Positions 6,001 through 64,000 of a stretch of DNA of 64,000 nucleotides are shown here, one piece after another. The stretch is taken from the NCBI GenBank assembly GCA_905178155.1, contig CAJINV010000009.1, positions 620,001-684,000 on the forward strand. Reading direction: 5' to 3'. Position numbers and translations under genes: made by a program. The notes beneath the pieces are model-generated. The model saw only the letters and a program-made list of their open reading frames with translations, was not told the origin of the DNA and made no database searches. This DNA comes from Amoebophrya sp. A120 (Eukaryota; Protista; Dinoflagellata). The first letter of the stretch is position 1, and each line of letters begins with the position of its first letter.

Positions 6001-9000
6001 TCCCCTGGACCTACAACGACACGAGGGACAAGTTCCAGCCCCTTCCCGGCCAGAAGGCGTACGAGACCAAGTTTGACAGCAATTTTGCGGTACCGGGGGC
6101 CGACTTGTTCGATCAGGGCGGGACGAGTGTTAACAAAGCACTACCGCCGATCACAAAGATCCACATGGTTTTGTACATTGAGGAGACGACCGAGTCGCTG
6201 GGTGACAGGGACAAGCTATGGGTGAACGCGAACCAGCAAGACCACTACAAGCACGAGGAGCAGTACCACCGCCGGATCATCGACAAGTACAGCTTCAAGT
6301 CGCAGGAGCATTTGCCCTTCGTCATGTCGACCTTCACGCAGCCGTATTTGACGGAGCTCACCTCTTTCAAGAACGCCGCGTCGCACTTCAACTACAAAAA
6401 GCCGTACAAAAACTTTGCCGGCTTTTACAACCACTACGCGGAGAATCCCTACCAGAAGATGGTGAACACTTTCTCCCTCTGGAACCAAAAAGCGCGCGAG
6501 TTGATGCTGACCGGCGGGAATTTCGCGTACCAGGAGTTCGACAACGTGACGATCAGTGATACGACGTTGTCGCACTTCACGTTTGAAAATTTGAAAGAGG
6601 GCTACTACTACTGGATCAAGTACCGAGTAGGGTCGAACCTCGGCTGGTCGCCCTTCTCCGTCCCGAACCGGTTTTACGCGTCGAAATTGCCCACGAAGCC
6701 GATGCAGCCGTTCGGAATCAACGCGTCGCTGACCAGCCTCGAAATCGGCTGGGCCTTTGACGATGACGGAAGTAAAAACCTGCAGAACGAAGACATTTTC
6801 TACTTCAACGTCTACATCCACGAGAATCCGGTCTTTCCCCACCGGGAGTTCCCCGTGCGCGACCACTACGACGGGGAGAACAAGAACCCGTGGGAGCCGT
6901 TCACCCGGTCGCCGGGGAACCGGTACCTCCACGACTGCGTCGCGAACAACCACAGCCAGGCGCAACTCTACTTCTGGGTGGCGGGCGTGAATGCCGCGGG
7001 TGAGGGCCCGCACTCCGACGTTTTGCGGTGGAGCTGCAGCAACATCCCGGACCAGCCGAAGCCCCCGACGATGTACTACTACCTCGGTGCGAGCGGGTTC
7101 GAGTGGGATTTGTTGCACCCGAACAAGACGGATTTCATCACCATGAACTGGACCCACAGCAACACGTACGGGGCGAAGATCGTCGGCACGAAGCTGTACT
7201 GCTTCGGGAATCAGGGCATGTCGCTGAAGGTGTTCTACACGCGGCAATACGAGACCGTGGAGGCTGGTTTTGGCGACGGGAAGCTGGAGCGGGCGTTTTT
7301 CATCGAGGGTTCGGACGTCACCATGGTGAACATCACGTCCTTCACGCCGACGCAGCAGTACGAGTGCTCTGTCACGACCATCTCCGACGTGGGGGAGTCG
7401 ATAAAGTCCTTCCCGCCGACGCGGTTGGAGATGGCGGGGAAGCCGCTGGCGCCCCCCTACCCTCCCAAGTACGTGTCCTCGCGATTGATCCCGACCGCGC
7501 GCTTGACCATCGAGTACGACCCGAGCTTATCCACAGAAAAAAAACCATCCCCATCCATTTTTTGCATGAGAAGCACAGGATTTTTTACGTGTTTTGCATG
7601 ACAAATTGGATGTGGACGATGGGTGTTTTTTCCTGGATAGAGCTCCATCGACGCGAACGGGGGGAAAATCGAGGCGGTGTACGTGTACGTGTCAATAGAC
7701 GGGGTCGTGTGGGATACGACGTATCTGCTCCAGCCGTACATCTACAAACTCGACCAGGTGTCCGCGCCCTACCAGCACGTGCAGGAGTGCAACGACGCGA
7801 GGCTACAGGGCGACCGTGCGCGGCAGTTCCTGTGGTTCAAGTACGCGGGGTACAGCTCCTCGGGGTTGGGCGGGTTGTCGCCGGCCTTAAAGAAGCGCTG
7901 CTCCAGCTTGCCCGCGTTCCCGCAGCCGATTCTCGCGGTGGACAGAAGGTACAACCCGGAATCCGAGCGCGGCGAAATGCTGATGAGCTGGAACATGCCG
8001 GACTTGTACGGCGCGCAGCACGTCGCCACCAAGATCTGGTGGGACTATGGTGCGGGACTGCCGTCCGGGTACCGGTTTCTGGCGACCATCACGGATACGA
8101 AGCAGACGACCTTCTGGATCCGGAATCTGATCCGCGGGCAGTACTACCGCGTCAGGTACTCGATCCTCTCCGACGTCGGCGAGTCAGCCCGGTCCGACGG
8201 GTTCGGCCGGCTGTTCGCCGGGCCCATGTTGCCGCCAGGGAAGCCGACGAGGAAGAACTCGCTCTTCAACGGCGTGCAGGTGGAGTTCAAGTACACACCC
8301 GACGAATTCTACAACGTGGGCGAGTGTCAGCCGGGAAATTGGGTCGTCTACACGTCGCAGACGGGCATCGACTGGAACTTCGACTCGCCGTTGGCGACGG
8401 TCGGGTGGTCAAACGCCGGTGCGAGCATGAACGTGATTCAAACTCCGGGGACTTACGTCTGGGTGCAGGCAAAGCTGCAGCCCGGGTTTCTGTGCCCGGA
8501 TGGGATCGAGGAGGTGTTCACGCCAGTGGAGAAGTTCTTCATTGGGCGCATCCCGGCGACGGTCGGCGCGATTAGGAAGGTCTCCTCCAAGGAAACGTCG
8601 ATTTTGTTCCAATTGATCCCCGGAAATCTGTTCGATTGCCCGTTGGTCGGTTTCGAATTCAGGTGGCAGAAGGCGTACTTGAAACCGGGCGACTTCGGCC
8701 TGACTATCGAGCACTACGTGCACGTGCCGGCGGCGAACTCGCAGTACAACCTGACGAATCTGGAGTACGACGTGCCTTACCGAGTGCAGTACCGCGTGAT
8801 CTCCGAGTGCGGCACTTCCAACCGCCAGGACGACTTGTCCGCCGCGAGCCTGTTCTACACTGGCGGGGACATCGACCCGCCCGACGACGCATACCCGGAC
8901 CGCGACCGATCCACCGACGCGCAAATCACGCTCGTCTGGCCCAAGTGGGGGTTGTCCGAGGGACACAACATGTACCGGGGGACCATTCACCAGCCCAGCT

Positions 9001-12000
9001 ATTATGTCTACTTGTCCGCGGACCCGAACCACTTTCCGGATCTGCCGACGACCATTATTCCGCTGAAATCCCCGGAAGCTGGGGACTTCTCCACCACGGC
9101 GGACCCAGAGTACTCGACCAACTGTCAGTTGCCGGATCACGGTCAACTGGCTGCGGGGAATTCTGGCGCGGCGAATCTCGACTTCCGGAACGGCGGGGCG
9201 GTGTATCTGAAGATGCAGGTGTACGACGCAGTGACGAGCCGGGTGGGCGTCATGACCAGAGTGCAGAAGTTTGTCTGCACTTTCTTGCCCAACAGACCGA
9301 CGATGAGTGTCCTCGAAACGTCGAACAGCACGATCACGGTGGGGTGGACCGGGGTGGATGTGTTCAACGCAGATTTTGTCGCGTCCCAGCTCTGGATCGA
9401 CGACGGGCTTGGCGGCACGCTGTACAACACGCTGAACATCACGGACCCGAACCAGCACTACGCACAATTCGTGAATTTGACCAACGCCAGACTGTACACG
9501 ATCCGGATGAAGACGCTGTCCACCGCGGGCGCCTCGCTGTACGCATCGACCCAGGGCTACAGCTGCTCGCTTCCGGCCCGGCAGCCCGCGCCCTACCCGG
9601 TGCCCTCCTCGGTCGCGAATTCCTTGTCCGTCGGCTGGACCATCCCCGGCTACGACGGCGACTGCCCGCTGGTCGGATGGCGCGTCATCGAGCGCGCGAA
9701 CGTGTCGACGACAAACGCGCAGGGCGACTCCGTGTACGAAATCCAAGACGTGAACATCTGGCCCGCCAGTCTCCCCATCACCGACCCCTTTGCCGCCGGC
9801 ATGGACGCGCAGTCGCGGCAGTACGGGCCGCTGACCACCGGCTTCACGAATGGCGAAGTTCGCGAGTTCAAGATCCGCGTGTTCAACTTTGGCGGCTTCG
9901 TCGACTCACCGTACATCTTCATCGAGATCGGCCCCACGCCGGAGCAAATGGATCCGCCGGCGATCGACACGCCGACGCTGTCCGGCCCGACAAGCATCTT
10001 CCTGCAGTGGAACATCACGGAAGACACCATGCGTGGCGTGCCGGCGAAGGGCTTCGCGGTGTACCGGGACAACGGGCATCTGAACAGTACAAAGATCGAC
10101 TACGTCAATCTGCAGGCGGTGGACTTGAACGGAACCCTGTCCGACGGAACGGTGCCGGATCCGGCGTGCACGGCGCAGGCCTACGACGGCGTGTGCTACC
10201 CAGAGCTCCCCGATTGGGATAGCAGAAGCTGTGTGCACAAGCCGGTCTACGACGTTGCGCATGCAAGGAATTGCACGATCACCGGACTCGAGCCGAACAC
10301 TTACTACAGGTACTGAAGGTTTTTTCGTATCTATGTTGGCATCCCCGTCCTCTGCTTTATTTTCTTTTTCCATGCATGATTCGCAATTTGTTGCACCAGC
10401 TTCGCTGCTTGCTGTCGACAATCTCTTCAAACATGTGCGATAAGATCTACGCAAGTTTTTCCGCATTCCATACATAATCTCTGCGATGGATGAAACTGCC
10501 AGCAAATGCAATACAGGTTCCGCGTCGCCGCCATCAATCGCCTTGGCCGCGGACCAGTGTCCGACGACGTGATTCTGAAGACCGGCTCGGTAGGTAATGT
10601 GTTCAATACGGTGCCCTTCTTTTCCGGTGCGACTAGTGGCGTACAGACGATGTTTGCCCCGGGTGCGCCGCAAAGCCCCTTGGTCAACGACACGTCTGCC
10701 AGTATCACGTTCTCCTGGAATCAGCCCCCGCAGGAGGACGGCGATTTCATCTTCAATTACAAGGTAAAGATGTTGCTGAATTGAAATTGTTATATGCCGA
10801 TGCTGGCACTGCTTTGGTACAATTTGATTTTGTATCAGTTACTTTGAGTTCCGCATTTATTTTTCCAAGCATACAGGATGACTACAGTCCTGAATACTCA
10901 CTCAGTGAAATAACGATTTGCTTTTGCGAGCTTTTTCATCATCTTGAATTTACGAAACTTCCAAGGCTCTGCTCACTTACATTCCGGACACGACGCGGCC
11001 GCTTCCCGACGACCCGCAGACGACAACCTTCGTCTACGCGGCAAACGGCTCGCTGCAATACCCGCTGCCACTCTCCACGAGGTCGCTGACCGTTCGCGCA
11101 AACGACTCCGCTGAAGCGAGCGCGTTCCTGAAACCTCGGAGAAGTTACCAGTTTCAGCTGATCGCGGTGTCCGAGCTCGGTGATTCAGAGCCGACGGTGG
11201 CGTCCGACCCGGGCTACATTATCAAATGCAAAAATGTCTGGGTCTGCGAGATTTGTCACGCTGATCTGGCATGGCCCTCAAATCTGTATTGCGTGGCCAC
11301 AAACAGCCTCTCTCGCCTGTCATGCAAAAATGCAGTTTCTCATGCGGAATACGCAGCACAGAGCACGAAGCAACTTGTCATGCTTGGCGGCGCATTACAG
11401 TGCATTTGTATATTGACTGACTTGCATCACAAGTTTCCAGACCCAGACATTTTTGCATTTGATATACATCGTGGGGGCACCACTCCCCGCAAGCGGCTTC
11501 CGACAGGACACGTCAAAAGGGTATCAGGGCGCTGTGGTGCACGTGATGTGGAATCCGATTATCGACATGAGCTACGCGGGCGCCGCGCCGTTCGCCACGT
11601 ACACAGAGAGCGCGCCGCCCGGCTGGACGCCGCCGACTTTGCGTAGCTTGCAAATGGAACAAGCTACGTCGAAGGAACTGATCTTGGACGGCGCGGTGAT
11701 GCACTACACTGAGGAGGCGTTCGCGCACTTGCCGCTAGCTGGCGATGACGATCCGCTGGGGAGAAAGCGGCAACTGCTGGAAGAGGACGTGAGAAGGCAG
11801 GTTTCTGCTGACGGCAAGAAGAGCTCGCATCTAGAAGGGACCATGTTGCGTACCAGTGACGAGGATACAGACGACGTCTTGGTTGGAGAAAGAAGTCTAG
11901 ACACACCTACAACCGGCGCCCCATCGACCGCACAGAAAATCCGCCGAGATTTGCTTTCCGATGAGGACGACGAGGGTCAACAAGACCCCGCTCGAATTCC

Positions 12001-13448
12001 GGCACCGAAAGCGAACAAGAGTAAAAAGGGAAAAGCAAAGAAATCAAAATCATCTTCTTCAAAATCCGGCACTAGAAGGCAGCTTTCTACTTCAGACTTT
12101 GAGCAGCAGCAGGATTTTGAGGACGAGGAGATGCCGACGACAGAAGCGCCCGATCTCCTGCTGGATGAGGAGAACGAGTGGGCGCGGTTGCTGAGTGCAA
12201 ACGACACCGGCGACGGGAGGCCCGCGTATTGTGCCGGTGAAGACCCGATAAACACGACCAACATGAACTGCACCACGACTTCCAGCACGAGTTCCACCTC
12301 CACCACGACCACGCTGCCCTCGGTTGACGTGTACTTCAGCAGCGAAAGTGGCGGTGACTTTTTCAAAAACACCTTCTACGAGGTCTGGGCGAGGGAAGTC
12401 TTCAACGATGGCCCACTGTATCGCACCAGCAGCAAGGGCGTCACCGGCGAGTTTGTGTTGCGGTACAAGGAGCCGATCAAGGTGGGACACACAACGAGTA
12501 TCATGACCAACAGCGATAATCCCGGAGCGCTGATGGAGTACAACAACTGTGGCACTTTTGTGACTTTTTGATCGTTTATTTTCTGACATTTTTCGTGTGG
12601 GTTTTTCTTTTTGTACACATTCGCTTTGTGGTCGAGTCAGTTGGTGTACTAGTGGGTTAGGGCTTTTTGTTTTGATTCCATTCGAAGACACGTTTCCAAA
12701 CAAGGGACTTACCTATGATCAACACTTGAACCTGCTACCAAGTTGCAAACAACTATTTCTCAGGCTGAAAATGCGCACGGTGAATAACAACGGCGCCAGC
12801 GACTTTACGCCCCCGATATTGGTCTACTCGGGCGAGTTATGCAAAGAAAAAGAGAGTGTTGCCGAATCACACTTCTACTTCAGCGACTGATACTGAAATT
12901 TTCTCTGCATCACAGAGAAAACTTGCGCTTGTCATGCAGAAATCATAAGGAGCAACACAACAGCAAGTATGAAGGAGGTAGACGCTTAGCGAATATCTTC
13001 GGCATGATAGCTGAGCTAGTCTATGTTGCTGGGCCTGCAACGCAGTGTGCTCTTTTTCTTTGCATACGACCGGTGCCCGCCAGTGCGGAATCTCACGTTG
13101 CTGGAAGAAGACCCGGAGTTTGTCACGGTGAACTGGCAGCCGCCCGAACACACCGGGTATGCGCCGTTCGTGCTTTACTACGAGGCGAGTTACACGACGA
13201 ACTCAACGCGGATCAGCATCCCGGCCATCAACGTCGGAGATCCGACCTTGCCCCTCGATTCTCAGGGCACATTGTACTCGATGACGGAGGGCCTTTCGGA
13301 GCAGCGGGCTAATTACGATCTTTACTGGGACATCAACAAGGCGGATCTACGGGCGTTCGGGTCCCCAGTCATGTACTACACAATAACGCCGGTCACGCAC
13401 GTCGGTAGGGGGACGCCCACGACCATTCAGGGCCCGGTCGTTCTGTAG
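1..13448 (+). CDS. Giant extracellular-type protein, YHYH-like domain followed by many fibronectin type III repeats; 5'-truncated, multi-exon (>3,950 aa)
   Basis: Frame open from nt 3. YHYH-family motifs TNGIPNH, LDTCNAH..YGYH, LIGFMLDGFPIY, CDLDDANG, YAYVATDEYPF. Many FN3 signatures (HWQPPNYNGG, YSVRIRSENVVGFGPWS, YRFRVAAINRLGRGPVS). Predicted introns: ~1903-2343, 7528-7644, 10310-10516 (GT-AG), 10764-10965 (GT-AG), 11220-11469, 12552-12687 (GC-AG, tentative), 12838-13071. Their removal gives one continuous frame of 3953 codons ending at TAG 13448. Confidence 0.85.
1903..2338. mobile_element. Degenerate TIR introner (TATGG...CCATA), 436 bp, carrying an internal palindrome array
   Basis: The 5' end tatggtgagaaggagggaatggggtggtg loosely matches the reverse complement of the 3' end (tatggagaaggggcaggaggagggtggggtgggtg). 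It contains the stop of ORF 135..1910. Removing 436+5=441 nt restores frame (NSV-RGGLIPIEW). No recognisable direct repeat remains. Confidence 0.6.
2005..2172. repeat. Array of 18-bp palindrome TGTCAGACGCGTCTGACA
   Basis: Copies at 2005, 2035, 2055 (1 mismatch), 2081, 2101 (1 mismatch), 2131 and a partial copy at 2161; spacers 12, 2, 8, 2, 12, 12 nt. Confidence 0.95.
7528..7639 (-). mobile_element. TIR introner family A (112 bp), reversed relative to the copies at 55289 and 58451
   Basis: tatccacagaaaaaaaacc...gtgttttttcctggata flanked by DR gagct (7523-27 / 7640-44). Removing 117 nt gives YDPSSIDANGGKIEAVYVYV in frame. Confidence 0.92.
11220..11464. mobile_element. TIR introner (245 bp) with perfect 27-bp TIR
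   Basis: TIR tatcaaatgcaaaaatgtctgggtctg; DR tacat (11215-19 / 11465-69). Removing 250 nt joins DPGY-IVGAPLPASG in frame. Confidence 0.93.
12838..13066. mobile_element. TIR introner (229 bp) with perfect 17-bp TIR
   Basis: TIR tatgcaaagaaaaagag; degenerate DR cgagt/cgacc. Removing 234 nt joins LVYSG-DRCPPVRNLT (FN3 start) in frame. Confidence 0.85.
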
Positions 13449-15343
13449 ATGTGTCGGCGGCTTTACAGAAGCAAAAAAGCAAAAGGGTGCTTTGCGTAGC
13501 CGGTTTTTTGAAAAGTCCGAGAACTGCAGACACACATGGAGGGCGCCCTGCAAGTGCTGCGTCGTGAGAACTCTCCAAGCACATCGAATTCAATTTCATC
13601 AAATTCAATATACCCAGTGAGGTCAGCCGCGACCTACTACAAAACTGAATCTAAATTTTACTTAAACTCCTGAAGCAGAGACAGGTGCTTTTTTTTCAAA
13701 CTTCTCTTCGTTTTTGCAAAAAAGTGGACTTAGCTAAGCACAACCAGGACATCAAAAGTTAAGCATTTCATACAAGGATGATATCTGTTGGAGCACCGAC
13801 TTCAACGGATAGGGATGAGCACGCTTATAAAGACAGCGGTGAGTCGTGATTTACTTCGACTTTCATCTTGATTACTAAATACGTAGACCAGAATCACTAG
13901 TGGAAGAAAAAAAAGAGACACCTTACGATTTCGTCGTGGTGTCCAAGAAACAAGATTACTTGACTTGATTTTGCTGTTACATCAGCTTGTGCTGCTCGCG
14001 ATGCGCAACAGTTTTCCGTTTTCAGTTTTACGCTAAAATTCAATCCTTAGCTTAGTACTTGTGGTCTTCTGTATCTATCTGTGGATGCGTAGGCCCGCAA
14101 AGAAATGATAGTTTCACCTTAATCAACCAAGAACCGACGGAGTTCTTCTAGTTTATTGCTCTCGTATCAGAACTGTATTTCAAATTTGTTTTACCTACGT
14201 ATTGTCGTCGCAATATGATGTGATACGACTCCTCTCGAAATTGCTTTCAGATTCATTTTTCCTGGAATAAGAGGAAAATTGTTTATTTGTTCAGGTTGGC
14301 TGATGTGTACACCACTTTCGTTGGTATGAAAAGTTCAACTGTATTCCATAGTTGTCGTGTGTTTCTTTGCTTATTTTGGGAAAAGAAAAAAAATCGCACT
14401 TGCAGTGCCGGCTAAGAGTAAGGCGAATAGGGATACCGTTGGAGTTAATGATTTCAACCTGGCTTTGTTATTCGGTTTCAATTTTTGCTCTCTTTTGTTT
14501 CGAACGGAACGGACGTAAGCGGTCGACTTTGTCGCTTGTTTTATTCCACCTTTTAAAAAACAAATTTCGCGACGGCTCCGATCACTCGATAGCCACAGCA
14601 GCAGCCTTCTCCGCGAGCTCTTGCGAAGTATCAGTCCTCTTTTTAAGCAGGCAGATTTTGTTCTCGCCGACGTTCGAAATTTACCACAAAGCAAGCTGCA
14701 TCGCGAGAGGATCTTGAGAGTAGCAACAAATCCGAGAGTGAGTGGTCAGCATACATAATGATGGCCCACGAATGCCGTTGCTTTTCATAGTCCTTCAGCT
14801 GTCGCCTTGCAGTTGCACTTGCTCGCGTGCGTGGTTGGCTATGTCGCTGAAACAAAGATGGGTACCGGAGTAAAGAAGGCACGTGTAGTCAACATATCAT
14901 TGACTTCGCTTTTTTGGTTTAAGATGCATCTGCTTCCCTCACCAACATCATGTCGCTTTTATTTTACCGCGACCTTATTTCTCTTGCTTTTTCGAACGTC
15001 TATTTCAGGCTACCAGCAGAACAAGCATTGGGAGTGTGTAGTGTCCATTGTAGTGTGTAGTAGATTCGCTTTGGTATCCATTAGCGCGACACTCTGTGTG
15101 GAGGTATGTTCCTAGCTACAGCAATGTGCTGTAGTATTTTCTGAACAGAAGCAAGTAGTAGCAGCATCTGATCTAGTCCAGCCGATGGTAGTTCAAATTC
15201 AAAGTCTAGTCCGGAAGGTGGTGCAGCCACCGCACTGTGGACGAGATAAAGCAAAAGTGCGAGGAGCTGTGAGGAAACGTGCTGTCTCAGTAGAGACGCG
15301 AGAGCCAACAAATTTGAATCTTCCAAAGACGAGGTAGCACAGA

Positions 15344-26621: not shown

Positions 26622-28098
26622 ATGTCGCAAGAGTCTACATCCACCATCGATGGCGAGATGCCACTGGTGAATGCGAAGACAATATGGATTGCAAAAGCAT
26701 CGTAGCGTACTAGTGTAAGAACTGTAAATTGCATGTACAAGAAATGAACTCAACAGCATTACATAAAATAATAAAATTTGTAATGTGGATTTTCCTTAAC
26801 GCAGCAAGATTTTTTGACTGCGATTTCTACGAGTGCGGTGCTTTTGCAATGCATAGACAAATCAGGTGGTGCAATCCTTCATACTCCAGTACAAAGGGCC
26901 GGGTGGGCAGCACCTTTGCTTGCGCGAAAAGACCTTCTCGACGATCGAGCAGGCGTTTTCGCACAAGGACCTTGCTGGCAAGGTGCTCGAGAAGAAGGAG
27001 GATCCAAAGCGAGCGTACTACTACCGTCTGTTAATGGAAGCAGAGATGAACGAGGATAGCGACGGTACACAGTATTTTATGTACTATGTCGAAGAAAGAA
27101 GCCTACTTCCACTGCTCGTTTCCTTTCCTTGTTTCGACTATTCTTTTTTTTGCCGCACATTTTTGTTTCGTACGGGTAATTTTGCTTCTGGTTCTGGCTC
27201 ATCCTCATCCACCTGTCGTAATCGTTTCAATTGACAACGACCCCTCCCGCTGCAGATGACGACATGTCCGAGTGGTCAGATGAGGACGAGAACCCGGGGG
27301 CTTCGCACGAGCAAGTAGGTAATCCCTCTGGCAGGCGAAGCGATCCTACTACGACTTCGGGCATGAAGCATGCCGGTCCCTCCCCTGAGGTCGCCCCATT
27401 TGTGACCAAAACCGCGACCGGCTTCTGTCTGGGGCCGATCCCGGGAGTGAAGCAGCTCAATCGACAGCAACAGGCGAAACTCCGGGAGGACCGTGCAAAG
27501 GAGGCCCAGGAGTTTTACATGGCACAGAAGAAGAAAAATGACCTACGGGAGGCGAAGAAATGTAGCATTTCCGTTCACACCACATCTGCAGCTTTTTCGT
27601 GCCGTTTATCTATGTGCTTGGATGGAAGTTGCTGTTGTATCATGGTTGCTTTTGTTGCACTTGAACTCGCAATGGAAGTTGTTGCAGTTCGTGAACATTA
27701 CAAAATTATTTGCAGATTTCGCGGAAGCGCGGGGTCTTTTAGTCTCCCGCAGTGAACTCCGTGCGGCATTGGAGAAGAACACGCAATTTCCGGCTGTGGT
27801 GGAGACAAAAGCCAGATTTGGTCCAGCTTGTTTCATCGGTGCGGTTCAGTACAGGAAGAAGCTTTTCTCCTGGGCACCGGCCCCGCCCAGCGTCTCCTCG
27901 TTGGAGCAACCTATCAGCACGGGAAAGACGATGAAAAAGCCCAGCAAGCCGGCAGTCGTGTCCGTCAACAAGATGGTGCAGAAGGAGCGGAAGCGCGGTG
28001 GTTCTCCATATCGTGGAGAGAAGATGAAGGCACTGCGCCAGCGGATTCGAGAGAAGGAAATGCAAAACGTCTTCGGGGCACTATTCGACGACGAGTAA
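26622..28098 (+). CDS. Hypothetical multi-exon protein
   Basis: GT-AG-bounded exons (about 26622-26666, 26866-27064, 27257-27561, 27716-28098) join in frame; ends VFGALFDDE*. Confidence 0.55.
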
Positions 28099-29712: not shown

Positions 29713-32700
29713 ATGACCAGCGTTAATATTCAAGTCGGGACGGGACCGTCCTCTTCCTCTACGTCCAAAAGTAGAGACAATGGTGCCTCAGATCTTGCCG
29801 GGGAGGAGGAGCCATTGCTGGTGCAGTTCCGGACGAGATTGGCCGCCGTGGCAGCCAGCAAGGACGCGGTCGTCGCAACGAAGTTGAAAGACCCACGAAT
29901 GTCGCACGCCGACTACCTGCGCAAGTTCCTCGTCGCGCGGCAGTCCAACCTGGACAAGGCAGCCGACATATCCACAGTAAATTTCCCGTACACGTACAAA
30001 TGCAATCTCTCCATGACAAAACTTGCCTTCAATCCTAGTCTAGCATGACAAGTTCGACACTGCAAGTTAGCGAAATTTGTCATTGCATTTTCTACATGTT
30101 TGTACGGGAAATTTACATTGCATACGACATGCTGGTAGCGCATTTCCACTGGAGGGACAAGATGAACTGTGATGAGGTAAGTTCTAGCTTCCGCAAAGCA
30201 TCTTCTATAGCGTGACTCCTGCATTACATCGATCAACCGAATGACACGTGTCGAGTCCACACTAAGAAGGTAGTTGTACTTAGGCTGTAGGCTCGTGATC
30301 GTTTCTACTTCGACTTGTAAGTCGTTAATCAATTTTTAGCCCCATAATGTCATCAACATCTACTCGTCATTTTTCTTTGTATTTTGCCGAAGTGCTGCAC
30401 TTTTTCCACCTCTTCTTTTGTACACCCTGCGACCAGGTTCTTTCCCAGCACAGAAGTGGAAAATTGTTCTCCCCCTCTGTTATTGGGACCTTGAAGAAGG
30501 CGTACCCCCATGGGTACTGCGGGGTCGACAAACAGGGATCCCCGGTGTACTACGAGCGCATTGGGCAGCTGGATGTGAAGGAGGTTTTGAAAACAGTGTC
30601 CGAGGAACAGTTTCTCCTGTACTTTATCGCGGAGGCAGAGAAAACCGCCTGGATCCGCATGCCCGCAGCGACGGAGTACTTCCACCGGAAACAAGAGGCG
30701 GCTGCGGTAAAGGCGTGTGAAAGTAGAGACGGCTCCACCAAAGTAGAACCGCCACCAGCACCGCCGCCCTCGTCCACCTCTTCCTCAAAGCCGCGGATCA
30801 CGAAGGGCGTGTCGGTACTGGATGTGCAGGGGATCGGGATGGGTTTCTTGGGCAAGACCACCCGGTCCGTGATTGCGCAAATCGGCTCCATGATGTCGGA
30901 CAACTACCCGGAATCGGCGAAGACAATCGTGATCATCAACAGCAGCCGGGTGGCGACCATGCTGTGGCCGGCGGTGCGGGCGTTCATCAATCCCGACACT
31001 GCGAAGAAAATCAAGCTCGTGTCCAAGGCGAAGACTTTCCAAACGCTGGAGGAGCTAATCCAGCCAGAGTGGATTCCCAGCTGGATCCCCGGCGGGAAGT
31101 GCACGCTGTGCGGCGACAACCTGGACCGCGACGTGGGGCCGTGGGTGGAAGGGTGGGAAGAGATGGAAAAACTCGTCTTTCCAAACGACAGTTGCTACTT
31201 TCACAACGCAGCAAATAACCGAGGAGATCTTGTTGACCCGAAAGCAGGCGACAGAACGCTGACCAAGCGCTCGCGTTCTAGGAGCAAGGCACTGCTCATG
31301 AGCGGCAAGAATGCGGCGCTCGGCATTGGTCGGAGGCTCGTCAGACAGCATTCGCAGGAACGCAGCAAGACCCCGGACCTCGACAAGAGAAAAAGTAGCA
31401 AGGAGAGCGACAGCACCGATCTGAAGAAGGGCGGACTCGTGAAACGCCGAAGCTATTCGTCCGGGGAGGTGATCGAGTTCCCGGAAGGACGGAAGAACGT
31501 GCCGCTAGGAACGACGTCTGGGACTGCAGGAACATCAAGTGGGGCGGTTCCGTGCGTCGGAAACATCATCAAGAGCAGCAGAAACAACAACACCAAATCC
31601 GCTGCTGCAGCTACGAGTTCAACATTCGGAAGTAAAATAAACCAGGCGAGCGGCACAACTGGTCATGTCGAGATCGACATTGATACCGCCTCGTTTGCCA
31701 CGCGATCGCGGTCGCTCTCCTACGACGACGCTCCCTCGACCGCTAACGCGGGACAGCGTGATCTGGAAGAAGAACAGATCAATGCAGGTCGCCCTGTTGG
31801 CGTTGGCCTTTGCGAGATGTTGACCTGTAGTAGAACGCCAGGGACTACTTCTGACAACACGGCACTGAACACAGGCGGAGATCAGCTTGTGCACACGATC
31901 AACGTGCTGCCGCTAGGACCATCGACGTCCTCTTCTCGGGGTAGCTCGGGTCCAATTCTTGCGTCATCCGGCGACCAGGACGACAACGACACTCTTGCGG
32001 TCGCTGGTGGTCCAGGTTCGATGAGTAAGGCCAGCAGCGCACAGTCTATCTGCGCAGATGAGCAAGAGCAGACACCAGACCTTCAAAGGGGACTGAGGTA
32101 GAGATATTTATATATCTGTTTCGTCGTTCTTACGTTTGGTTTGGTAATTTTGAAAGAGCGTGCTGGCGCAAGAGCAACCCCAACCATCAGCTCCAGTCTC
32201 CATGCCGCGTTGCCATTGGCGGCCGTGGGGGCCGGGACGTCTTTTAAAAAGCAAGGGTTGCAGATGTTGCATTCTGACAGCACCAGATTGATGGTCAAAC
32301 CAAGTGGTGGACGAATGAAGTAAGGATGTGAAGATGTCCATCCGCTACTGTACTACAACAACAGCATCTACACGACTGAATCGCGGGAGCGCGATACGGA
32401 CGCCCCCGAGACCTCCGTGCGGTATTGGAGCGCAACTTCGCGCAACCGCCTGGCGGAGGAGGAGGAGCTTGGCATCGTGGATCCAGAACACGTGGCAGTC
32501 AATCTGCTCGGCTCCCCGCTGACGGATACGAGCCCCGCGGATTGCCAGTTTCTGCAGAAGACCGAACGGGACAGAACGGCGCTGCTAGGTTCCGGCGCAC
32601 AGGAAAGCTTCGTCCCCGGCGATCCGGCCAACCCCCGACCGTCCAAGTTTACGCGCTTGTGCCGGAAGTTCGCCAATTATTGCTGCCCGCGACGCACGCG

Positions 32701-32734
32701 GAACAAGGAACTGAAAGCAGGTTTGGTCGTATAG
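29713..32734 (+). CDS. SEC14: Sec14/CRAL-TRIO lipid transfer protein with disordered C-terminal tail
   Basis: YLRKFLVARQSNLDKAADMLVAHFHWR (after element removal), YPHGYCGVDKQGSPVYYERIGQLD, SDNYPES, FINPDTAKKIK, IPSWIPGGKC; GT-AG intron 30177-30436; 3' exon structure approximate. Confidence 0.9.
29969..30124. mobile_element. TIR introner (156 bp) in the Sec14 N-terminal domain
   Basis: tatccacagtaaatttcccgtaca...tgtacgggaaatttacattgcata (16-bp perfect core); DR cgaca (29964-68 / 30125-29). Removing 161 nt restores DKAADMLVAHFHWR. Confidence 0.92.
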
Positions 32735-40283: not shown

Positions 40284-43200
40284 ATGATGGACCAACATCT
40301 CGCGATGAGGACGACGTCGCCGTCTTTGGTCTACGAGGATGGGAATCGGTTCAGTCCCCAATCCTCTCGTTGTCGAGGTGAGAATCTTTCCGGCCACAGA
40401 GAAGACCTTCCGTTGCTTACGAGTCTGGAGCTGGACGCGAGGAGAAATGAGGATATTAAAAGGACGATCTCATTATCATCAACTCCGTCTTCGTCTTCCA
40501 CAAATCCAAGTCCGTTCACGACTGTTCCGCTAGGCAAACGCCTGACTCCGCCGGCTCCGGGCCGTTGCTCTCCTCGTGGCATGGCAGGAAGACAGGTTGC
40601 CAAGTTTCTCTTTTTCAGCGCAACATCGACGCAGCAGATACTCCACGCTGCCTGTAAAGCGGAGGATACCGTTGCATCCGCGGTGTTGAGTGGGGCTTTT
40701 GTTGACACGACGACGAACCGACAAACCACGCAAAATCTTCGCGGAACGGCAACAAATATAGGAACACCGGTGGAATTGGCGCAAGGTCAAAGCTCTACTG
40801 GCGCGGACACGACGAATATCAACGGGGGAGTGGTGAACCTTGACAAAAGTCCTGTAACGTCAGAGCAGCCTGGTCCACTGCAGCAGGGCGATAGTACTCG
40901 TGGTGTTGCAGAAGCTAGTACAGGAAATGTTGACGACGGTCTGTCATCGCATCTGCAGCAAACACAAGCGCCTGGTGAGGAGAACGTGGTTGACGGCACA
41001 TCGAACACTCTAACCACGTCCGGCCCTCCCGGTCCCTCTTCAGGGGTAGCAACAGCAACGGATGACGGCAGCGGCTCCTCTTCTTCAAGTAGCAGCACAG
41101 GAGCCGTCGCTTCGGGCGACGCGGCTGGTGACAAAAAGATAGGACTTCCAGTGTCGCCGTTACTGCACTCGTCCTCTGCAACGTCGTCCGGAGCAAATAA
41201 CGCAAACGGTAATAATGCTGCGAAAGGCGAGCAACTTTCGAACGCGTTTTCGGCTGCCGGATCAGCTGCACTGAATTCCCCGCAGATGCAACAGGACGGC
41301 TTCGTAACGAAATTTATCGCGAACATCGCGCTGCTGTCTTCCGTGGCGCTAATGTTATCCCCGGCACAGTTTTTCTACCAGCTTGTGATAACGCGCGGCG
41401 AAAATATCAAACAGAGTCGAAAGCAGCTGATTCTCCTGCTCCCCTACCTGCTTCTTTGGGTATCAGCGATGCTGTGGGCGACCTGGGCGTACCTAGACAG
41501 CCGCCCGGAGATTTTCCAACTGCAGTGTCTGGGTGCAGTGGTCTACGGCTTCTACGTTGTGATCTTCTGCTGCGGCGCCACCGCCGCACAGAAGGGACAA
41601 ATCCAGTCCGTCGTCGCAGGGACAATGGCACTTGTTTCCTTTACCAGCCTGCAGGGAGCGTGTGTCATGGATCCGAAACATAGTACCACTTCTCGTTATC
41701 TTGATCTACGTAAAACGACTTGCTGTGTGTAGTACGAGTACCTACTTGAAACCATATTTATTTTTATAGAAGAATCAAACTGAGCCTGATTCAGGCTCAG
41801 GTCTTTTTGAAAGCCAGCGAAAGACTACGACGATGTCGGCACCATCTCTGCTTGATGCTAGTGGAGCAAAGATTTTGTGAAAATCAAATTTATCGCAATT
41901 CGACACCCAGGTAAATTTCTCTTCGCCTACTCCGCCCTGAGCTTCCAAATTCTGTTGTACATGGTTCCGTTTATCCAGCTTGCAGACGTCGTTCGCACCG
42001 GCGTGGTGGCGGTTTTTCCTTTGCCGCTTTGCTTTGTCTCCATGATGTCTTCTTTTTTGTGGACCTACTACTCGTGGATCAAATGGAGCCCCGCGTTTTG
42101 GTACTCTTCGTATTTTTCATGGTTTGAAAATTATGAGCAAGTCGCTTTACAACTTACTACAGATCATGAGCAAGTCTAACATAAAGATCGTCCCTACACC
42201 AGCCGACTTGGTGTTGAATGAACGTGGGTGTTTCGCTATCGCGCCCGCATTTGCAGTGTGTGTGTGTGTGTGTGTGTTTTTTTCTGATATTCTACCATTG
42301 CAAACAATTTGCATACACAGGGCCGCGTCCCTCGCGGGTTTTGTCTTCAACGGGATGCAGGTTTCCGTCGTTCTCTACATTCAATGGAAATACGGCAAAT
42401 CCATCGTGGACTCCTGCAAGCTTGAAGCGCCGATAGCCAACGGCCGGCTCCCGTTTCTCATGCAGCACGGGTACCAGATCGATCTGCGAAAGGCTCGGAG
42501 CATGCGTTCGCAGTTTCGGAGTAAGATGGGCACGACCATAAAGGCGGAGGATCACGTTTTCTACAACCAACACCTACACTCCGGGGATCTGCATTATGGA
42601 TGTGTCAGGTTTGAAATCGTCAGAGTTGAAATAGTTTGCAATGCATAAAATGGATGCCAGTTGGAGCCCAGTTTTCAAGTGGCGCATGACAAGTTTTCGC
42701 GGTGCCTAAATCCAGTTTGTAATGCTGTTTGGGTAAGGAAGACGCCTTTTGTCATGCTACTTAAGCAGCTGTATTCCTACCCCTCAACAGGCTTGCAATC
42801 TGCCTCCCTTGCCTACTCTGCAAGACAGGAACTTTGCGGGTTGCATTTTATGCATCACAAATTATTTCAACTTTGACGATTTCAATCCTGACGCTTCCAT
42901 ATGCATCCTCTCGGCAGTCGCGTGGGCGACGGGAGCGTGCTGATCGACCACGGAATGACGGGCCAGGAAATTACGGAAACTGGGTTCGGTATGGAAGCGT
43001 CAGGATTGAAATCGTCAAAGTTGAAATAATTTCTCACGCATAAACTGCAAGGCATGAAGTGCCTCTCTTGCAGGGACCGCAAGTGAGGCCGACTGTCAGC
43101 CTGTTTGGGGTCTGCGGTAGAGCTGCTGAAGTAGCATGACAAAAGACGCCTTCTGTCCCAAAACAGCATGACAAACTGGATTTAGACGCGGCCGGCATTT

Positions 43201-43411
43201 GTCATGCACCGCTTGAAAATTGGGCTTCCAACTGGTATCGATTTTATGCATTACAAGTTATTTCAACTTTGTCGATTTCAAGCCTGACACTCCCATATCC
43301 GGAGGCGGGACCGGCAAAGGGGGAGGCACAGGCGGGAAAAATGGTGGGGCTGCCACTGGAGGCTCGAAACCGGGAGAGAGGACGCGACTGCTACACGCAA
43401 CCCGCTTGTAA
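40284..43411 (+). CDS. SWEET: SWEET (MtN3/saliva) sugar transporter with long N-terminal extension
   Basis: Two MtN3 repeats: IANIALLSSVALMLSPAQFFYQLV..LPYLLLWVSAMLWATW and ILLYMVPFIQLADVVRTG..PLPLCFVSMMSSFLWTYY. GT-AG introns 41683-41910 and 42101-42320 plus two TIR introners; ends GERTRLLHATRL*. Confidence 0.85.
42256..42277. repeat. (GT)11 microsatellite in SWEET intron
   Basis: Direct reading of the sequence. Confidence 0.9.
42595..42901 (+). mobile_element. TIR introner family B, copy 1 (307 bp)
   Basis: 39-bp TIR with 4 mismatches (tatggatgtgtcaggtttgaaatcgtcagagttgaaata); DR tgcat (42590-94 / 42902-06). Removing 312 nt gives HSGDLH-PLGSRVG in frame. Confidence 0.92.
42990..43297 (-). 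mobile_element. TIR introner family B, copy 2 (308 bp), inverted relative to copy 1
   Basis: Starts tatggaagcgtcaggattgaaatcg, the reverse complement of the copy 1 3' end; its internal sequence is also the reverse complement of copy 1. DR ttcgg/tccgg. Removing 313 nt gives TGFG-GGTGKG in frame. Confidence 0.9.
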
Positions 43412-54800: not shown

Positions 54801-57800
54801 AAACTCCAACCCGACGACGTCGACGTCGCAGCAGCACGGGGTCTTGACCAGGAGTAGCAGTAGAGGTGGGATAAAATCCACTAGCACGGTCAGTGCAGGT
54901 GGCGCGGCGACAGTGTCTGTCCCTGATGGCCCCGATGGAGGTGGAGCTGCAACTGGGACCACGACAACCCAACATCAGGCACACGCGTTTGACCAGTTCC
55001 GCAACGAAAGAACGATTTTGTTGACCAAGGGAGCAGACAACTCCATGCTGTCTGTTGGTTCGTTGGAGCAGCCATTCGACGAACGCCAGTGGTTGGACGA
55101 CCACATCTTGGACTTCGCGAAGAAGGGGCTGCGGACGCTGCTGCTCGGCTACCGCTGGCTCTCCACCACCAAGCAAGCCACCTGGTCGGAGAGGTACAGC
55201 CAGTTGCGGGGCAGTATTGACCTGTCCGAAGACGATAAGAAGCAGCAAACCCTGGATATGATCAACGAGATGGAACAAAACCTAAACCTATCCACAGAAA
55301 AAAACCCATCCACATCCAATTTGTCATGCAAAACATACATAAAATTCTGTGTCTGTCATGCAAAAAATGGATGTGGATCGGTTTTTTTCTGTGGATAAAA
55401 CCTCGTCGGCTGCACGGGCGTGGAGGACAAGCTGCAGGACCAAGTGCCGGAAACCATCGCGCAGCTGCAGGCCGCCGGGATCAAGTTCTGGGTGCTGACC
55501 GGAGACAAGGTCGAAACCGCGATCCAGATTGGCCAAGCGTGCAACCTGCTGAACGAAGGGACGTACAATCTCGTTTTGACAACTCCCGACGCGAGCGACG
55601 TCGAGGAACGGCTGAAGGAGTTCCAAATCTGGCTCGACGCTGCCGAAATCTTGCAGTTCGCAATTCAGCTATCACCCTTATTGACGTAGGGATGAAATCG
55701 GTTCTTCCTCTTTCTCTTGCATTTTGAAATGCATCAAAACACTATGGCTATGCATCTGCGTGCGCTGCTGAGGAGACAGCTGTCGTTCCACTTGCCAGAT
55801 GACGCGATGGAACAATAGCTACTTACTTCTAGTGCAAGAATCCTGGCATACGAATCACAAGAGCAGGACAAAGATATGTATGCGAGGATATTAGATCGCA
55901 ATATCAATATGTGATGTGAAGATGTGCGCGGCCTTCAACATCGATATTGTTCTTAAAACACAGTATGACGGTGAAGGTTCCGACTTCATCAGATTTTTGA
56001 CGCGATACTGTTCAGGCGAGGAAGACTTGGTTTGGTCCGACGACGAGATCACCCAATCCGAGGAAAGTGAAAGCCACTCGCAGTATGAAAATACATACGG
56101 CCAGCAGATGCCCTCGTTGGTCCTGAATCAAGCCGACACGAACTCGCCAGCAACATCTTCAGTCGCAATCGGAGGCGCGACGTTCCAGCAACAGCCAGAG
56201 GTACCACTCCTCGGCCCATCAGGAGATGACAGCGGCTATACAGCAGGACGCTCTTTCGCGCCTGGGTCGATAGCGTCCACCTCTTCGACAGCAGTGGCGC
56301 AGCAGCGGGCGCGGCAAACCGGACTGGAAGGCGTGCAGGTCGGCGACGTGGTACTTGCCCCGTATGATCCGAGTGGACCACGGAACACTGCTGCGAGCTC
56401 CGGGCCCGGAGGTACAACCACGGGTGCTGCCACAGGCAGGAGGAAAAGCAGCGCTCACCACCACGAGCATCACCACCATCACCATCACCACGCCACGACA
56501 AAACACATGGTGCGTGCGGAGGACCTGTCGCGGGTGGTGCAGGCGCAAACGGTCGCAGTTGGCACCCAGCCGAGCAGCTCTTCGACCTCGCCACCTCCCG
56601 TAGCACACCAGCATAGCTATCAGCATGAACTTCAAGTAGTGGATCACCCGTTTCCCGCGGTGACGCCGCGCCGGGGCGTTGACCGAGGAACATTTCAGTC
56701 CAGCACCAATTCCAGCGCTGCAGTAGGCAACATAGTGGTCCAAACGCCAACGCGAGCAGGTGGCCCTTCGTTGCCGCACGCCAACTCGCGCGACAAACTC
56801 ATCGCGCGACACATCAGCCGAGCCATTTCGGGTGACAGGCTGATGCAAGACATAGACATGCCGCCCGGGGGGGATCACTACAGTACGACGCGGGCGGATC
56901 CACAAGCGCTTCCCTCGGTCCGCCTTGACTACGACGAGACCACGGCACCGTCGCAGACGCCCGGCCGGCCCACGCGGGCGAGCCACACGCTTCCCACGGA
57001 ATCGGCGTCCAGTCGGTGGTCCCGGACGCTGCGCGCGTTGCGTGGCAGTGCCTCTGGCGTGGATGACACGCCACTGAACCAGATGAAAAAGGAAGAAGGC
57101 CGCTTCTTTCTGTCGAAGCGAAAGAAGCAGATGATAAGGGAGGGTATCCGGAAGCGCTACCAGCAGATCCAGGACCGGCTGGTGACGTTCTCCAGTGCGG
57201 GTCTCGGCGTAACTGGTTCGTCGAACAATCGCGACACCGCCGCATCGTCGTCGTCAAGCCAGCAGCTTCAGCCAAGCAGGATCTCCGCTCTTGGGCAGAC
57301 GCCGCCAACTCCGGCGACAGGTTCGCGAACGACACTGCAACCGCCAGCACAGCTGCACCAGAGTGGAATCAGCGCTTCGCAGCCGATCTCCACGCTTCAC
57401 AGCACGCCACCGCACGGCAGGAGTACAGGCTGCGCGGCAACTTCCAGGTCCGGACAAAAGCCACACCTTCAGCTTCGCGCCGCCGGGGACCAGACGAGTG
57501 TGAATTTCGAAATAGATCCAGGTGACCTACCTCTATCGCAAAACTACGGTGGACTTGAAACACCGACCGCGGCAAGCCGCCGAACGCAGGCTCGCCAGTC
57601 GTTCAAGCTGCCTACCTCTCCGTCACGGCCTGGCGACTTGATGACGGGCCCGGGCGGTGCGCCGCCCTATTCTAGCGCCATGATTCACCGCGTGATCGAC
57701 CCTAGTTCTGGCGAGATAATTGCGACCACCGCCCGTAGCCGCGAGGCTTCTCTCTTTGATACGACGAGCCAAGCGGAACGAATCACGCGCAGAAGGCAGA

Positions 57801-59702
57801 TGGATCGTGGACGCAGCCGCACCTCGATGCAAAAGAGCACCTCGGGAAGTCGTGTCTTTCAACATCACACAAGCACTTTAAGCCGACAAACGCAACAAGA
57901 CGACGGCGCTCCCGGGGGCCAGGTACTTTTACCAGAACAGCAAGAAGAAAACTTGCTCCAGGTCTTCAGAAGCTGCGCCATCACTATCACGGGCGACGTT
58001 CTGGCAGTTATCCTGCAGTCCCGCAAGCTCCGGCGCTTCTTTTTCCGTATTGCGCTGCAGAATTGCAGCGTGATCATTGCTTGCCGCGTGTCACCCATTC
58101 AAAAAGCGGACATTGTCGCGTTGTCCCGCCGTTACCGCCAGTCCGACCACAACGCCATGCTCGCGATCGGCGACGGGGCGAACGACGTGGGCATGATCTT
58201 GCGCGCGCACGTCGGCGTCGGGATCTCGGGGAAGGAGGGCGCCGCCGCCGCGAAGAGCGCAGACTTCGCGATTTCCCAGTTTAAGCACCTGAAGAAACTG
58301 TGTTTCGTTTACGGCCGGGAATCTATGCGGCGTAATGCGCTCTTCGTCTACTACTCGCTTTACAAAAACGTCGCGTTTTCCATGCCGTCCGTGTTTTTCT
58401 CGATGGTGAGCCGTTTCTCCGCGCTGGACCTGTATGACCCATGGGTGAAATATCCAGGAAAAAACACCCATCCACATCCAATTTGTCATGCAAAACATAC
58501 ATAAAGTTCTGTGTTTGTCATGCAAAAAATGGATGTCGGTGGGTTTTTTTCTGTGGATATGAAACAGATTTTCAACACAGTGTTCACCTTTCTGCCCATC
58601 GTCCTGTACACCATTTTTGACCGCGAACTGCCCTACTACTACCTCCTCAACGGGCCCCCGCTGTACCGGCCCCTCCGATTCGGTGTCCCCTCCACCGGCA
58701 CCGTGGCTTTCTGGTACTGGTTCTGGCAGGGCTGCTGGTGCGCGTTCATCTGTGCGGTCTTGCCCATGTGGCTCTTCGACGAGGCGCCGGAGCTCGCGGG
58801 AACGCCAGCGGGCTACCACGTCGGAACGTTGGTTTTCACGTCCGTGATCTGCTCCGTCACTGCGATCCTCCCCATCCACCACAACATCTACTTCTACTTC
58901 ACGATCCCCGGCCTCGCGATGGGGCTGCTCACCTTCCTGTGGGTCTGGATTCTCGTTTCCGAGACGCAGATGATCGGGTACCGAAGTACCATGTACCGGA
59001 CCTACTACCTGCTGACCTGGACCGTCGGATCGCAGTTTTTCCTGATTCTCATCGTCACCACGCTCTTCGCGGTTCTGCCACACTACATCTACTTGCTGCG
59101 GGGCGTGTTCTTCCCGGACGGAGTGCGAATCGTGAAGGAGAGGATAAAACTCCGGGTACACGACGTGCTCTTGCTCCCGGACGCCACGAACGCCAACACT
59201 GGGCCGGTGATCGTGCCGCACAAGCGCCAGATCCGCTTCGAAGATTTGTACGAGCCGGAGGTGAAAAGCAGGCAGCTAGGGGCGGGTGCGCAACAGCCTT
59301 TGCTGACGGCGGAGACGAAGAATGCAGTATAGATGTGTGCGTGAAGTAGTTGTTCCTGAAATTAGAGAACCAATTTCAAAGATTAGTTTGTGGAGGCAAA
59401 ATAGAACATCGACAGACGAACGCGCATCAATGAACGGGGACCCGACCAGTTTCTATCTCATTTCAAAACAGGACTCCGTCGCGGCCCCAGGTGGCGATAA
59501 TCAGCCGCCGGGTGGTGCTAGTGGTGCTATCAATGGCGTACTCACGAGTTTCCTCCCGAATAAGTGGCTCCGAAGTCAAAGTCAAGCAGGAGCAGAGGGA
59601 CAGCAAAGCGAACCTGTAGTAGGCGCTGGTCGAGATGAGGCGGTCGCCGAATTTGACAGCGCTACAAGCTCCGGAGAGAGTCCTTTTGTAGCTGTCAGCT
59701 GA
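51900..59702 (+). CDS. P4-type ATPase (phospholipid flippase)
   Basis: [72 protein letters not shown]. Introns ~54126-54348, 55289-55402, ~55657-55963, 58451-58564, ~59327-59471. Confidence 0.95.
55289..55397 (+). mobile_element. TIR introner family A (109 bp)
   Basis: tatccacagaaaaaaacc...ggtttttttctgtggata; DR aaacc (55284-88 / 55398-402). Removing 114 nt restores [14 protein letters not shown]. Confidence 0.95.
58451..58559 (+). mobile_element. TIR introner family A (109 bp)
   Basis: tatccaggaaaaaacaccc...gggtttttttctgtggata; DR tgaaa (58446-50 / 58560-64). Removing 114 nt restores [19 protein letters not shown]. Confidence 0.95.
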
Positions 59703-62184: not shown

Positions 62185-63125
62185 ATTATCATACTTACTT
62201 AAATAATGAAGTAGTTGACGCTCCAAAGAAACAACATGACGCAATACGAACTATGAAAACTCCGGCTGTACGGCGCAGGCGCAAGGAAAGCTAAGCGTAG
62301 ACATGTTTCGAAGATGTGGGCGGGGGGGGATGAAGGATGTGGTCTACTGATTGGGGGGGCAGGACCACGTGACCCGCGGACTTTTTCTTAGCGGTTCCGG
62401 GTCACCTTTGTAGTTGTAGTTCACGTCGTTGTCATCACTTGTGTTTGATGAAAGAGAGTGAGAACATGAACAAGCAGCGAGGACCTGCGCACTTACCAAG
62501 GTGCGTCCAATGAGTAAGTAAGTAGCTGCAGAAGTTGTGCTTCTGCCCGTGTTTGACGTCGTCAGTGAGGCCTTACTCAGCGATGCCGCGGCCAGGCCAG
62601 CACCAGGACTCATCCTATCATGTTTTCGTCGGTTATTAAAGTGAAGTTGTTTTCAGTCATATTTATCCCAGCTGCGGTTTTTTAGTGCACGCGCAGCGGT
62701 AGTTTGGAAGTAGCCGGTTTAGTAACGCGATAAAGTCAACTTCTGAGCTTGTCGTCGTGATTATACATATGTCAGCCAGTGTCAGACTCAGGCGCGTCCT
62801 CACAATTATTATTTTGTTGCGTCACGGTTAGCAATGGATTCTAGCACACTGAATTGATCGTGTGAAATAGATTTGCGGTTTGTGTTAGCGCGAGCGACAA
62901 GCACACACGACGAGACTAAGAGGGACGCTGTTGAGATTGTGAGCTGCAAGTCGATCTTTCACGCGAAGACTCGCATCGTTTTAATGTTGAAGCCGTTGAT
63001 GTCTTCCGTATTCTGTCTGAGGAGTTTTTCTGCTTTATCAGCGAAAGAGATCGGCAGCAGGCTTCGTTTTGATTAAAGAAAAAGTCAAGTATCTGTATCA
63101 TTATCACTTGAAGCGGCAGGGAAAA

Positions 63126-64000
63126 ATGACCAGCAACATTGCAGGACAAGATTTCTCGACGCTCCCACCGGTTCAAGCTGCCCTCGGCTCCCTTCCGGAA
63201 AATGCTACGAAGACCGCACTTATGGCGTTGCTTGGACCCGTTACAGCACTGCAACCTGCGTCGACGGCGATTGGCCTCCTTAAGCAGGCTGCGCTTGAAA
63301 ACCCTGAACAAGGAACCAGTCCTGGCGCAACCCTGTACGGACTCTTGTCTATCATAAAGACAAGCTTAGCTGGATTTGCAGTGGAAGCAGTCTTGAAGCA
63401 GAAAATTGTAAACCATGTCGGCGATGTCGTGTTCGCGGAAATTGCGCAAACAAGCGAAGCGCCGGCGGCGGTCGAAGAAGCCAAGACACAAACTATTCTC
63501 TGAAAATTAAGCATCCCCATCAATTTGTACTTGTGCTGCAAAATAAGAAACTCATATGCGCGGTAACAGAATAGAAGGAAAAATTACCGGGTAACTTTTA
63601 CTAGTTATTTTGTATAGCCGCTCGAAAGCAAATTCTAATTGATTCTGTGTCTTTGTCTCTGTCTGTCATGTAAAAAATAAAGAGGCATGGATGGGGGTGG
63701 TAACTTTTCAAGGAATAAAAGTCAAACAGTTTCTAAGCGGAGACGACAGTGTAGGAGAGGCGCTAAAAAACAATTTGGCGCAAACAATAATGCCAAACTG
63801 GCCGCCGGGTACTGCACCTGGAGCGGGTGGTGGCGAAACCACCGGGAGCAGCTCCGTGCAACTGGCGCAAACGAGTGCTATTCATTCGAGCTCCACCTCC
63901 GCTGCGGAACTACCAACAACTTCCTCGGAGCAGCAGCAATCCTTTGCTGAAGCTGAAGGCGCTCGCTCTCCCAGTACTGCTGCTGCCAACGTCGCTGCCG
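63126..64000 (+). CDS. Hypothetical protein, 3'-truncated
   Basis: ATG 63126; the ORF continues after removal of the 63494-63717 element (AKT-KVKQFLSGDD..) and stays open to the window end. Confidence 0.65.
63494..63717. mobile_element. Degenerate TIR introner (224 bp)
   Basis: 5' tattctctgaaaattaagcatccccatc versus reverse complement of the 3' end tattccttgaaaagttaccacccccatc; decayed DR caaac/aaagt. Removing 229 nt restores frame; contains tgtcatg. Confidence 0.7.

Follow-up and report, generated by a model that had tools for sequence, protein, structure and literature searches.

The introners of Amoebophrya sp. A120 share an internal motif, YYTGT-V-W-TGC, which is probably a conserved subterminal repeat common to their TAT...ATA families, a putative double-stranded DNA site for the protein that mobilises them, and likely dispensable for splicing. 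The motif was studied in the window, which is the whole stretch of 64,000 nucleotides (64 kb) analysed from contig CAJINV010000009.1, and in elements from a second assembly (JACKZZ01). The motif is real and reproducible, and it likely functions in transposition; what is gained here is its replication in the second assembly together with tests that discriminate between mechanisms.

Introners of the window and their removal

A120 introners have been described as inverted repeats that start with TAT, are bordered by 3-5-nt direct repeats, undergo non-GT-AG removal, and belong to many families (PMC7789003, PMC12130899). We assign 11 elements of the window to them because of their TAT ends, direct repeats, non-GT-AG removal, and lineage-specific, repeated insertion. 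The carriers of the motif are TAT...ATA inverted-repeat elements, and the 5-bp target-site duplication (TSD) is perfect in seven of 11. The sites orthologous to 7528, 11220, and 55670 are uninterrupted in a congener genome, B1.

A 109-nt family is represented on the plus strand by 55289..55397 (TSD AAACC; sites 55322 and 55354, at 33 and 65 nt from the tip; 114 nt skipped in RNA) and 58451..58559 (TSD TGAAA; sites 58484 and 58516; 114 nt skipped), and on the minus strand by 7528..7639, the reverse complement of these two, with TSD GAGCT, sites at 7596 and 7564 (variant TCTCATGC) spaced by 32 nt, and 117 nt skipped in an RNA-like contig. The host gene of 55289 is likely a P-type ATPase, a name given by eye from the translation. 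A 307-nt family has two copies in reverse orientation to each other in the same gene. The first, 42595..42901, has TSD TGCAT, a minus-strand site at 42684 and a pair at 42718/42750, with sites at 42 nt from each tip and 312 nt skipped; the second, 42990..43297, has a TSD matching at 4/5 positions and sites at 43134, 43166, and 43248 on the minus strand and 43200 on the plus strand, with 313 nt skipped. The element at 11220..11464 has a 27-nt perfect terminal inverted repeat (TIR), TSD TACAT, plus-strand sites at 11254, 11285, 11318, 11338, and 11376, minus-strand sites at 11424 and 11392, and 250 nt skipped. At 29969..30124, with TSD CGACA and minus-strand sites 30043 and 30011 spaced by 32 nt, removal restores the reading frame. 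The initial annotation had overlooked the element at 26683..26855, which carries variant sites at 26756 (minus) and 26779 (plus) in place of the exact 7-mer, with TSD GACAA and 178 nt skipped.

The remaining elements have imperfect duplications. That at 12838..13066 has a TSD matching at 3/5 positions (CGAGT/CGACC) and sites at 12930 (plus) and 12907 (minus). An older introner at 63494..63717 has a TIR matching at 12/16 positions, a TSD at 2/5, and one weak site at 63664; the frame is open after removal at -1/+4. An old, decayed introner at 55670..56007 retains its TAT...ATA ends but has lost its TSD, and its only site, a weak one, lies 43 nt inside the left tip. One further candidate, 28265-28490, was rejected as an element: it has TAT...ATA and weak inverted ends, but no TSD, no open frame, and a best site score of 3.9, and it is probably a chance occurrence or a very old copy, apparently outside coding sequence.

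Among the joints listed, contigs that we take as RNA by guess (runs X1-X4, one sample) skip nine of the nine elements that they cover, each with 5 nt more than the element; the elements at 29969 and 63494 lie outside contig coverage. At least 13 GT-AG introns are likewise skipped in the RNA-like contigs of these runs, and both orientations of two window families are skipped. Run X5 (second stretch only) skips none of that stretch's five elements among the joints listed, and its depth is 3,500-22,900 in bins over elements vs ~24 elsewhere. Where the TSD is imperfect, the position of the RNA cut can be read directly: it is unambiguous in element 12838 (12837..13070), and 55670 is still cut at 55669..56011, in both cases one nucleotide upstream of TAT and four nucleotides downstream of ATA. 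The cuts suggest a ruler-like splice rule that is tied to the element ends and holds even in the old, TSD-less copy.

Several other features of the window and of B1 were seen along the way. A gene of very large size, seen as ORF pieces of 1834 and 891 codons, occupies window positions 2097-13450; its ortholog in B1 is clear and has many more introns, at other positions. The non-canonical introns of B1 have TTA...TAA ends; those of L123 (minus strand, near 5100-4985 and 1830-1650) and L126 start with TTAAGGCT, end with CTAA, and have five-base repeats agreeing at 4-5 of five bases. GCTACAA occurs in five of 14 introns of L123, possibly as an analogous TGTAGC motif, and for one TTA-type intron of B1 no second full-length copy was found. 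At 1985-2178 of the window, a head-to-tail array of palindromic units, TGTCAGACGCGTCTGACA, is flanked by two long ORFs. At 11435-11465, raw reads of another study (run X9) agree with element 11220 at its right end only, beyond which they run on into a related element, also with GCATGACAAG. The host genes are left uncovered by the raw reads of X9 and of a further run, X10.

A motif shared across families

The initial annotation had reported 16 positions of TGTCATG or its reverse complement CATGACA in nine elements; each is an exact match, and the nine carriers total 1,799 nt. Its expectation of 0.2 is correct under a uniform model, and rises to ~0.5 with matched dinucleotides. Across the 64-kb window the total is 19 (shuffle mean 8.5, maximum 16 in 100 shuffles), including exact 7-mers outside any element at 41663, 44418, and 54337, which were absent from the earlier list. 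The nine carriers collapse to only six families. The exact 7-mer is present in nine of the 11 window elements, the spliced elements 26683-26855 and 55670-56007 being those from which it is absent. With one copy taken per family, it is found in six of eight window families (9 sites vs 0.5 expected), and the best of any 7-mer reached six families in 13 of 2000 shuffles. The window's 13 canonical GT-AG introns (2,638 nt) contain no TGTCATG.

The motif is broader than this 7-mer. It can be written as TGT[C/G/A][A/T]TGC after two pyrimidines, and the site profile in the second assembly is aaaYY-TGT-V-W-TGC. The two central bases are CA in 42% of sites, GA in 23%, AA in 13%, and AT in 9%, and an A follows TGTCATGC in only 50%.

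The second data set came from searching metagenomes for pairs of motifs spaced by 32 nt close to an element end; this covered 24 of 64 parts of the data and gave at least 119 loci, at least 77 of them from JACKZZ01; 75 of these (323 kb) were used after two duplicates had been removed. Within them, elements were located by a finder that used ends and duplications only, and not the motif, and this returned 290 elements in the JACKZZ01 loci vs 15 hits in 211 kb of control sequence, made up of 42 other metagenome loci and 3 viral ones. Three motif-pair matches on viral contigs were rejected as introners, as the finder reported no element there. The 5-bp TSD is perfect in 214 of the 290 elements, and the fourth base is C or G at 276 of 290 left ends, TAT itself being imposed by the finder. 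We then set aside two elements longer than 600 nt, one that was doubtful, and 60 that overlapped the search pattern, leaving 227. JACKZZ01 loci L004-L122 have about one introner per 1.1 kb and contain eukaryotic host genes (E1, KIN17, RING). Because the closest copies of seven window elements are 77-94% alike, JACKZZ01 may derive from the species of the window or from a near relative; its loci are different, but its lineage is not independent. JACKZZ01 is a usable second source of introners.

In the 227 elements (54 kb), TGTCATG occurs 322 times, vs a shuffled mean of 13.6 and a maximum of 17 (10 shuffles); 168 of them contain TGTCATG, and 217 contain TGT[ACG]ATGC. When 7-mers are ranked with weighting by family, TGTCATG is first under loose clustering (14.0 of 18 families; best shuffled 7-mer, 8) and second under strict clustering, with 18.3 of 27 families behind the overlapping GCATGAC with 20.8 of 27 (best shuffled, 10). 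Once families with a pattern-selected member are excluded, at least half of the copies contain TGTVWTGC in 22 of the 24 families under strict clustering and in 13 of the 15 under loose clustering. With canonical introns as the control and family redundancy removed, a comparison that the initial annotation had named as able to refute its proposal, the enrichment of TGTCATG persists.

The geometry of the sites is also constrained. Consensus sites number 2-7 per family (12 families with three or more members), and in them the first inward-facing site typically lies 32-33 or 40-44 nt from the tip. Overall, this site is usually at 32-36 or 42-44 nt, with a further site 31-33 nt inward of it. Of 31 family representatives, 18 contain tandem pairs with a spacing of 31-33 nt, 27 pairs in all. 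Weighted by family, pairs of this spacing amount to 9.8 vs 0.98 by random placement, and inward sites at 32-44 nt to 12.0 vs 4.2, with 0 of 1000 permutations as extreme in either case; the permutations used families free of selection bias and strict clustering, and loose clustering gave 0 and 1 of 1000. Distance to the tips, which the initial annotation had suggested checking, shows a non-random placement at 32-44 nt. Tip distances show weak phasing at 10.5 nt (Rayleigh p of about 0.04 and 0.01), a general 10.5-nt phasing of spacings outside the 31-33 class is unsupported (Rayleigh p 0.28 and 0.88), and an excess of inward over outward sites within 60 nt of the tip is not significant (65 and 251 of 1000 permutations). 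RAG- and Transib-like recombination signals have a different spacer class at the two ends. A 12/23-like asymmetric spacer rule of this kind was rejected, since two-ended families are mostly symmetric (32/32, 33/33, 42/42, 42/43, 44/44, 40/42), with one at 43/55.

The families had been called otherwise unrelated, and this mostly holds: with ends and motifs masked, only 10 of 465 family pairs align at z above 4. It does not hold for a weak common spacer pattern, seen as spacers 33% alike between families vs 27% in shuffles, with a faint inverted half-site 15 nt after the first site. Because the spacers share this pattern, the families may have a deep common ancestry. Foreign DNA was seen inside elements at or beside the motif in three individual cases (L081:3096-3834, L015:7480-7848, and L015:6314-6770); in two, unlike sequence begins straight after TTTGTAAT, and in the third an insert ending in (ATG)n is joined to the ATGC of the site.

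DNA-level evidence and alternative explanations

The strand test drew on 274 elements with enough flank, for 197 of which a codon model assigned the gene strand with confidence, the overlap between L010 and L009 having been de-duplicated. Relative to the host gene, the sites of these 197 elements lie 280 times in the sense and 270 times in the antisense direction; one family, whose six sites all face the same way, was inserted 16 vs 17 times by orientation. When the element plus 5 nt is removed, the frame is open at 109 of 136 junctions, whereas lengths that shift the frame leave it open at 79-90 of 134-137. In 11 of 12 families the motif columns show stronger conservation than the rest of the interior. 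On trees of nine families, substitutions in the core reach 0.30 of the expected level on internal branches and 0.49 of it on terminal branches (Fisher p=0.0006), and the two variable motif positions change at 0.86 and 1.04 of expectation; TIR-column rates, which are biased by the finder, were excluded from the selection tests. Core change is 0.062 in 52 copies with mismatched TSDs vs 0.041 in 149 with perfect TSDs (+0.021, CI 0.005-0.038), and the other interior change is 0.104 vs 0.090 (+0.014, CI -0.003 to 0.032). This suggests that the core is unprotected after insertion, with TSD-age intervals that are wide and overlapping and a terminal value of 0.49 that leaves room for some protection. 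The halved core change on terminal branches can be explained by unsampled ancestry or by continuing selection after insertion.

The initial annotation had proposed a binding site for the mobilising transposase or a mark for excision. The first half fits the tip distance, the 31-33 spacing, strand independence, and the stronger constraint on internal branches; the second, if excision is taken as RNA splicing, is disfavoured. The DNA-level evidence fits equally well with a host DNA-binding protein, such as a transcription factor or chromatin protein, that sits on the motif as an accessory or protects the element, the enzyme reading the tips only. We regard this as unlikely. One conserved host protein would easily explain one motif over diverged TIRs, but the motif is rare outside elements, with 4 occurrences in the ~61 kb that make up the rest of the window (8 shuffles gave 0-2) and 0.29 strong sites per kb in unlike DNA of the second assembly vs 14.4 in elements, where the profile was trained on these same elements. 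It is also at chance level in two relatives, both small samples: B1 loci (25.4 kb) contain three exact 7-mers and no site scoring 12 or more, and B2 (13.1 kb), where elements of this type are absent, has a single 7-mer and no strong site. TGTCATGCA resembles the apicomplexan AP2-EXP octamer TGCATGCA (PMC6631176), yet TGCATGCA itself occurs only three times in 54 kb of elements.

More doubtful than a host factor is an RNA signal for non-canonical splicing, acting either as a protein site or through internal pairing. The motif comes close to a palindrome, and the predicted fold of 55289 has its two tandem copies paired with each other; however, the central bases that palindromic pairing requires are the variable ones, which change at the background rate. 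Almost all elements retain a site, and 222 of the 227 second-assembly elements keep one scoring 12 or more, so motif-free spliced controls are few, and those of the second assembly are all unsupported by RNA; in the window, on the other hand, 55670 and 26683 are cleanly removed despite weak or variant sites. Farhat et al. detected no U1 snRNA (PMC7789003), which speaks for this reading, whereas the non-canonical introns of B1 lack the motif. Constraint persists on terminal branches, but orientation is random, even for one-directional families. Because of this random orientation to the host gene, and because the old 55670 (one case) is cut at the same offsets, a role in splicing is disfavoured.

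Least probable is that the motif is a functionless relic of a single ancestral element with an internal 32-nt repeat, for which the spacer likeness, the alignable masked pairs, and the half-site at +15 speak, but against which the core was kept although the flanks can no longer be aligned in 455 of 465 pairs. Within families, moreover, changes in the core are depleted, which by itself largely refutes a relic; ancestry may account for the origin of the motif and not for its persistence.

A model of mobilisation and comparison with known systems

We return to the preferred reading, in which the motif is a site on DNA for the mobilising protein. An oligomeric transposase, or a DNA-binding partner of it, would place one domain on the TAT tip and a separate sequence-specific domain on the motif pair, the two motifs lying three helical turns apart and so on the same face of the helix. 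Because tip and motif pair would be recognised, one enzyme lineage could move many families whose TIRs diverge past the first few bases. After insertion the motif sites would decay, and splicing would rely on the paired ends. Introners would in this way carry two separate codes, the paired ends serving their removal from RNA and the internal sites their movement. A motif with fixed geometry and this pattern of selection argues for one protein-based machine common to the families, and it offers a handle for binding work.

As a bolder and more tentative proposal, which we think possible though short of even chances, a single undescribed transposase lineage might read a bipartite code (the TAT tip and a helically spaced TGTVWTGC pair) and ignore the remaining TIR, in which case any DNA gaining the code would become a mobile, self-removing intron. 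If true, the bipartite code would account for the lineage's many introner families, and the motif would be bait for an enzyme missed by published searches. In the available text of their genome paper, Farhat et al. found no transposase in A120, make a case against transposases as the general means of mobilisation, and give no family-specific logic for introner movement (PMC7789003). In the second assembly, none of 66 ORFs matched transposase families, and seven matched other families.

Other transposons are well known to have subterminal repeats that bind proteins. The subterminal repeats described here are of a kind known from MITE systems, and the binding protein is one that we infer. With respect to A120 introners themselves, published lengths near 106, 149, 260, 278, and 305 nt match families here, whereas the searched text and supplements of the same papers contain no internal cross-family motif or spacing rule (PMC7789003, PMC12130899). 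In the table consulted, A120 introner families stand as 'TIR DNA, Unknown' or unknown, among 22 of 58 rows (PMC12130899). TGTCATG is absent from the supplement text of PMC7789003 and from the text of 13 of 14 supplementary files of PMC12130899, whose supplementary figures could show it; the motif is unmentioned in the available text of PMC9860276, and our literature searches returned no paper tying it to introners.

IS3EU elements share TAY...RTA termini with introners, but they have a 6-bp duplication vs 5 bp here (PMC12730594). An identity with IS3EU was rejected, as the element plus 5 nt, and not a 6-bp duplication, is removed at nine of the nine joints listed. In the pogo-like Emigrant/Lemi1 system, the Emigrant MITE has subterminal repeats to which proteins of a related transposon, Lemi1, bind cooperatively, a situation like the one proposed here (PMC1636448). 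Emigrant is a single MITE family, in contrast to the introner motif, which is shared by some 20-30 families whose members double as introns. The Tc1/mariner-pogo group to which Emigrant belongs makes a TA duplication.

By analogy, the likeliest mobilising enzyme would be hAT-like. The features of hAT5 elements found in introners are the 5-bp TSD and subterminal repeats within the TIRs. A 5-bp target duplication is described for hAT5 (PMC12730594) and is seen in introners too; the main text of PMC6004678 does not mention hAT5. The BED domains of Hermes bind short subterminal repeats in both orientations, and hAT/Hermes elements resemble introners in having short repeats within the TIRs, in both orientations and asymmetric between the ends (PMC10368747). 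The Hermes sites are 4 bp long, dense, and begin within the first 30 bp (PMC10368747), whereas the introner site is 8-10 bp long, begins 32-44 nt from the tip, and occurs in pairs spaced by 31-33 nt.
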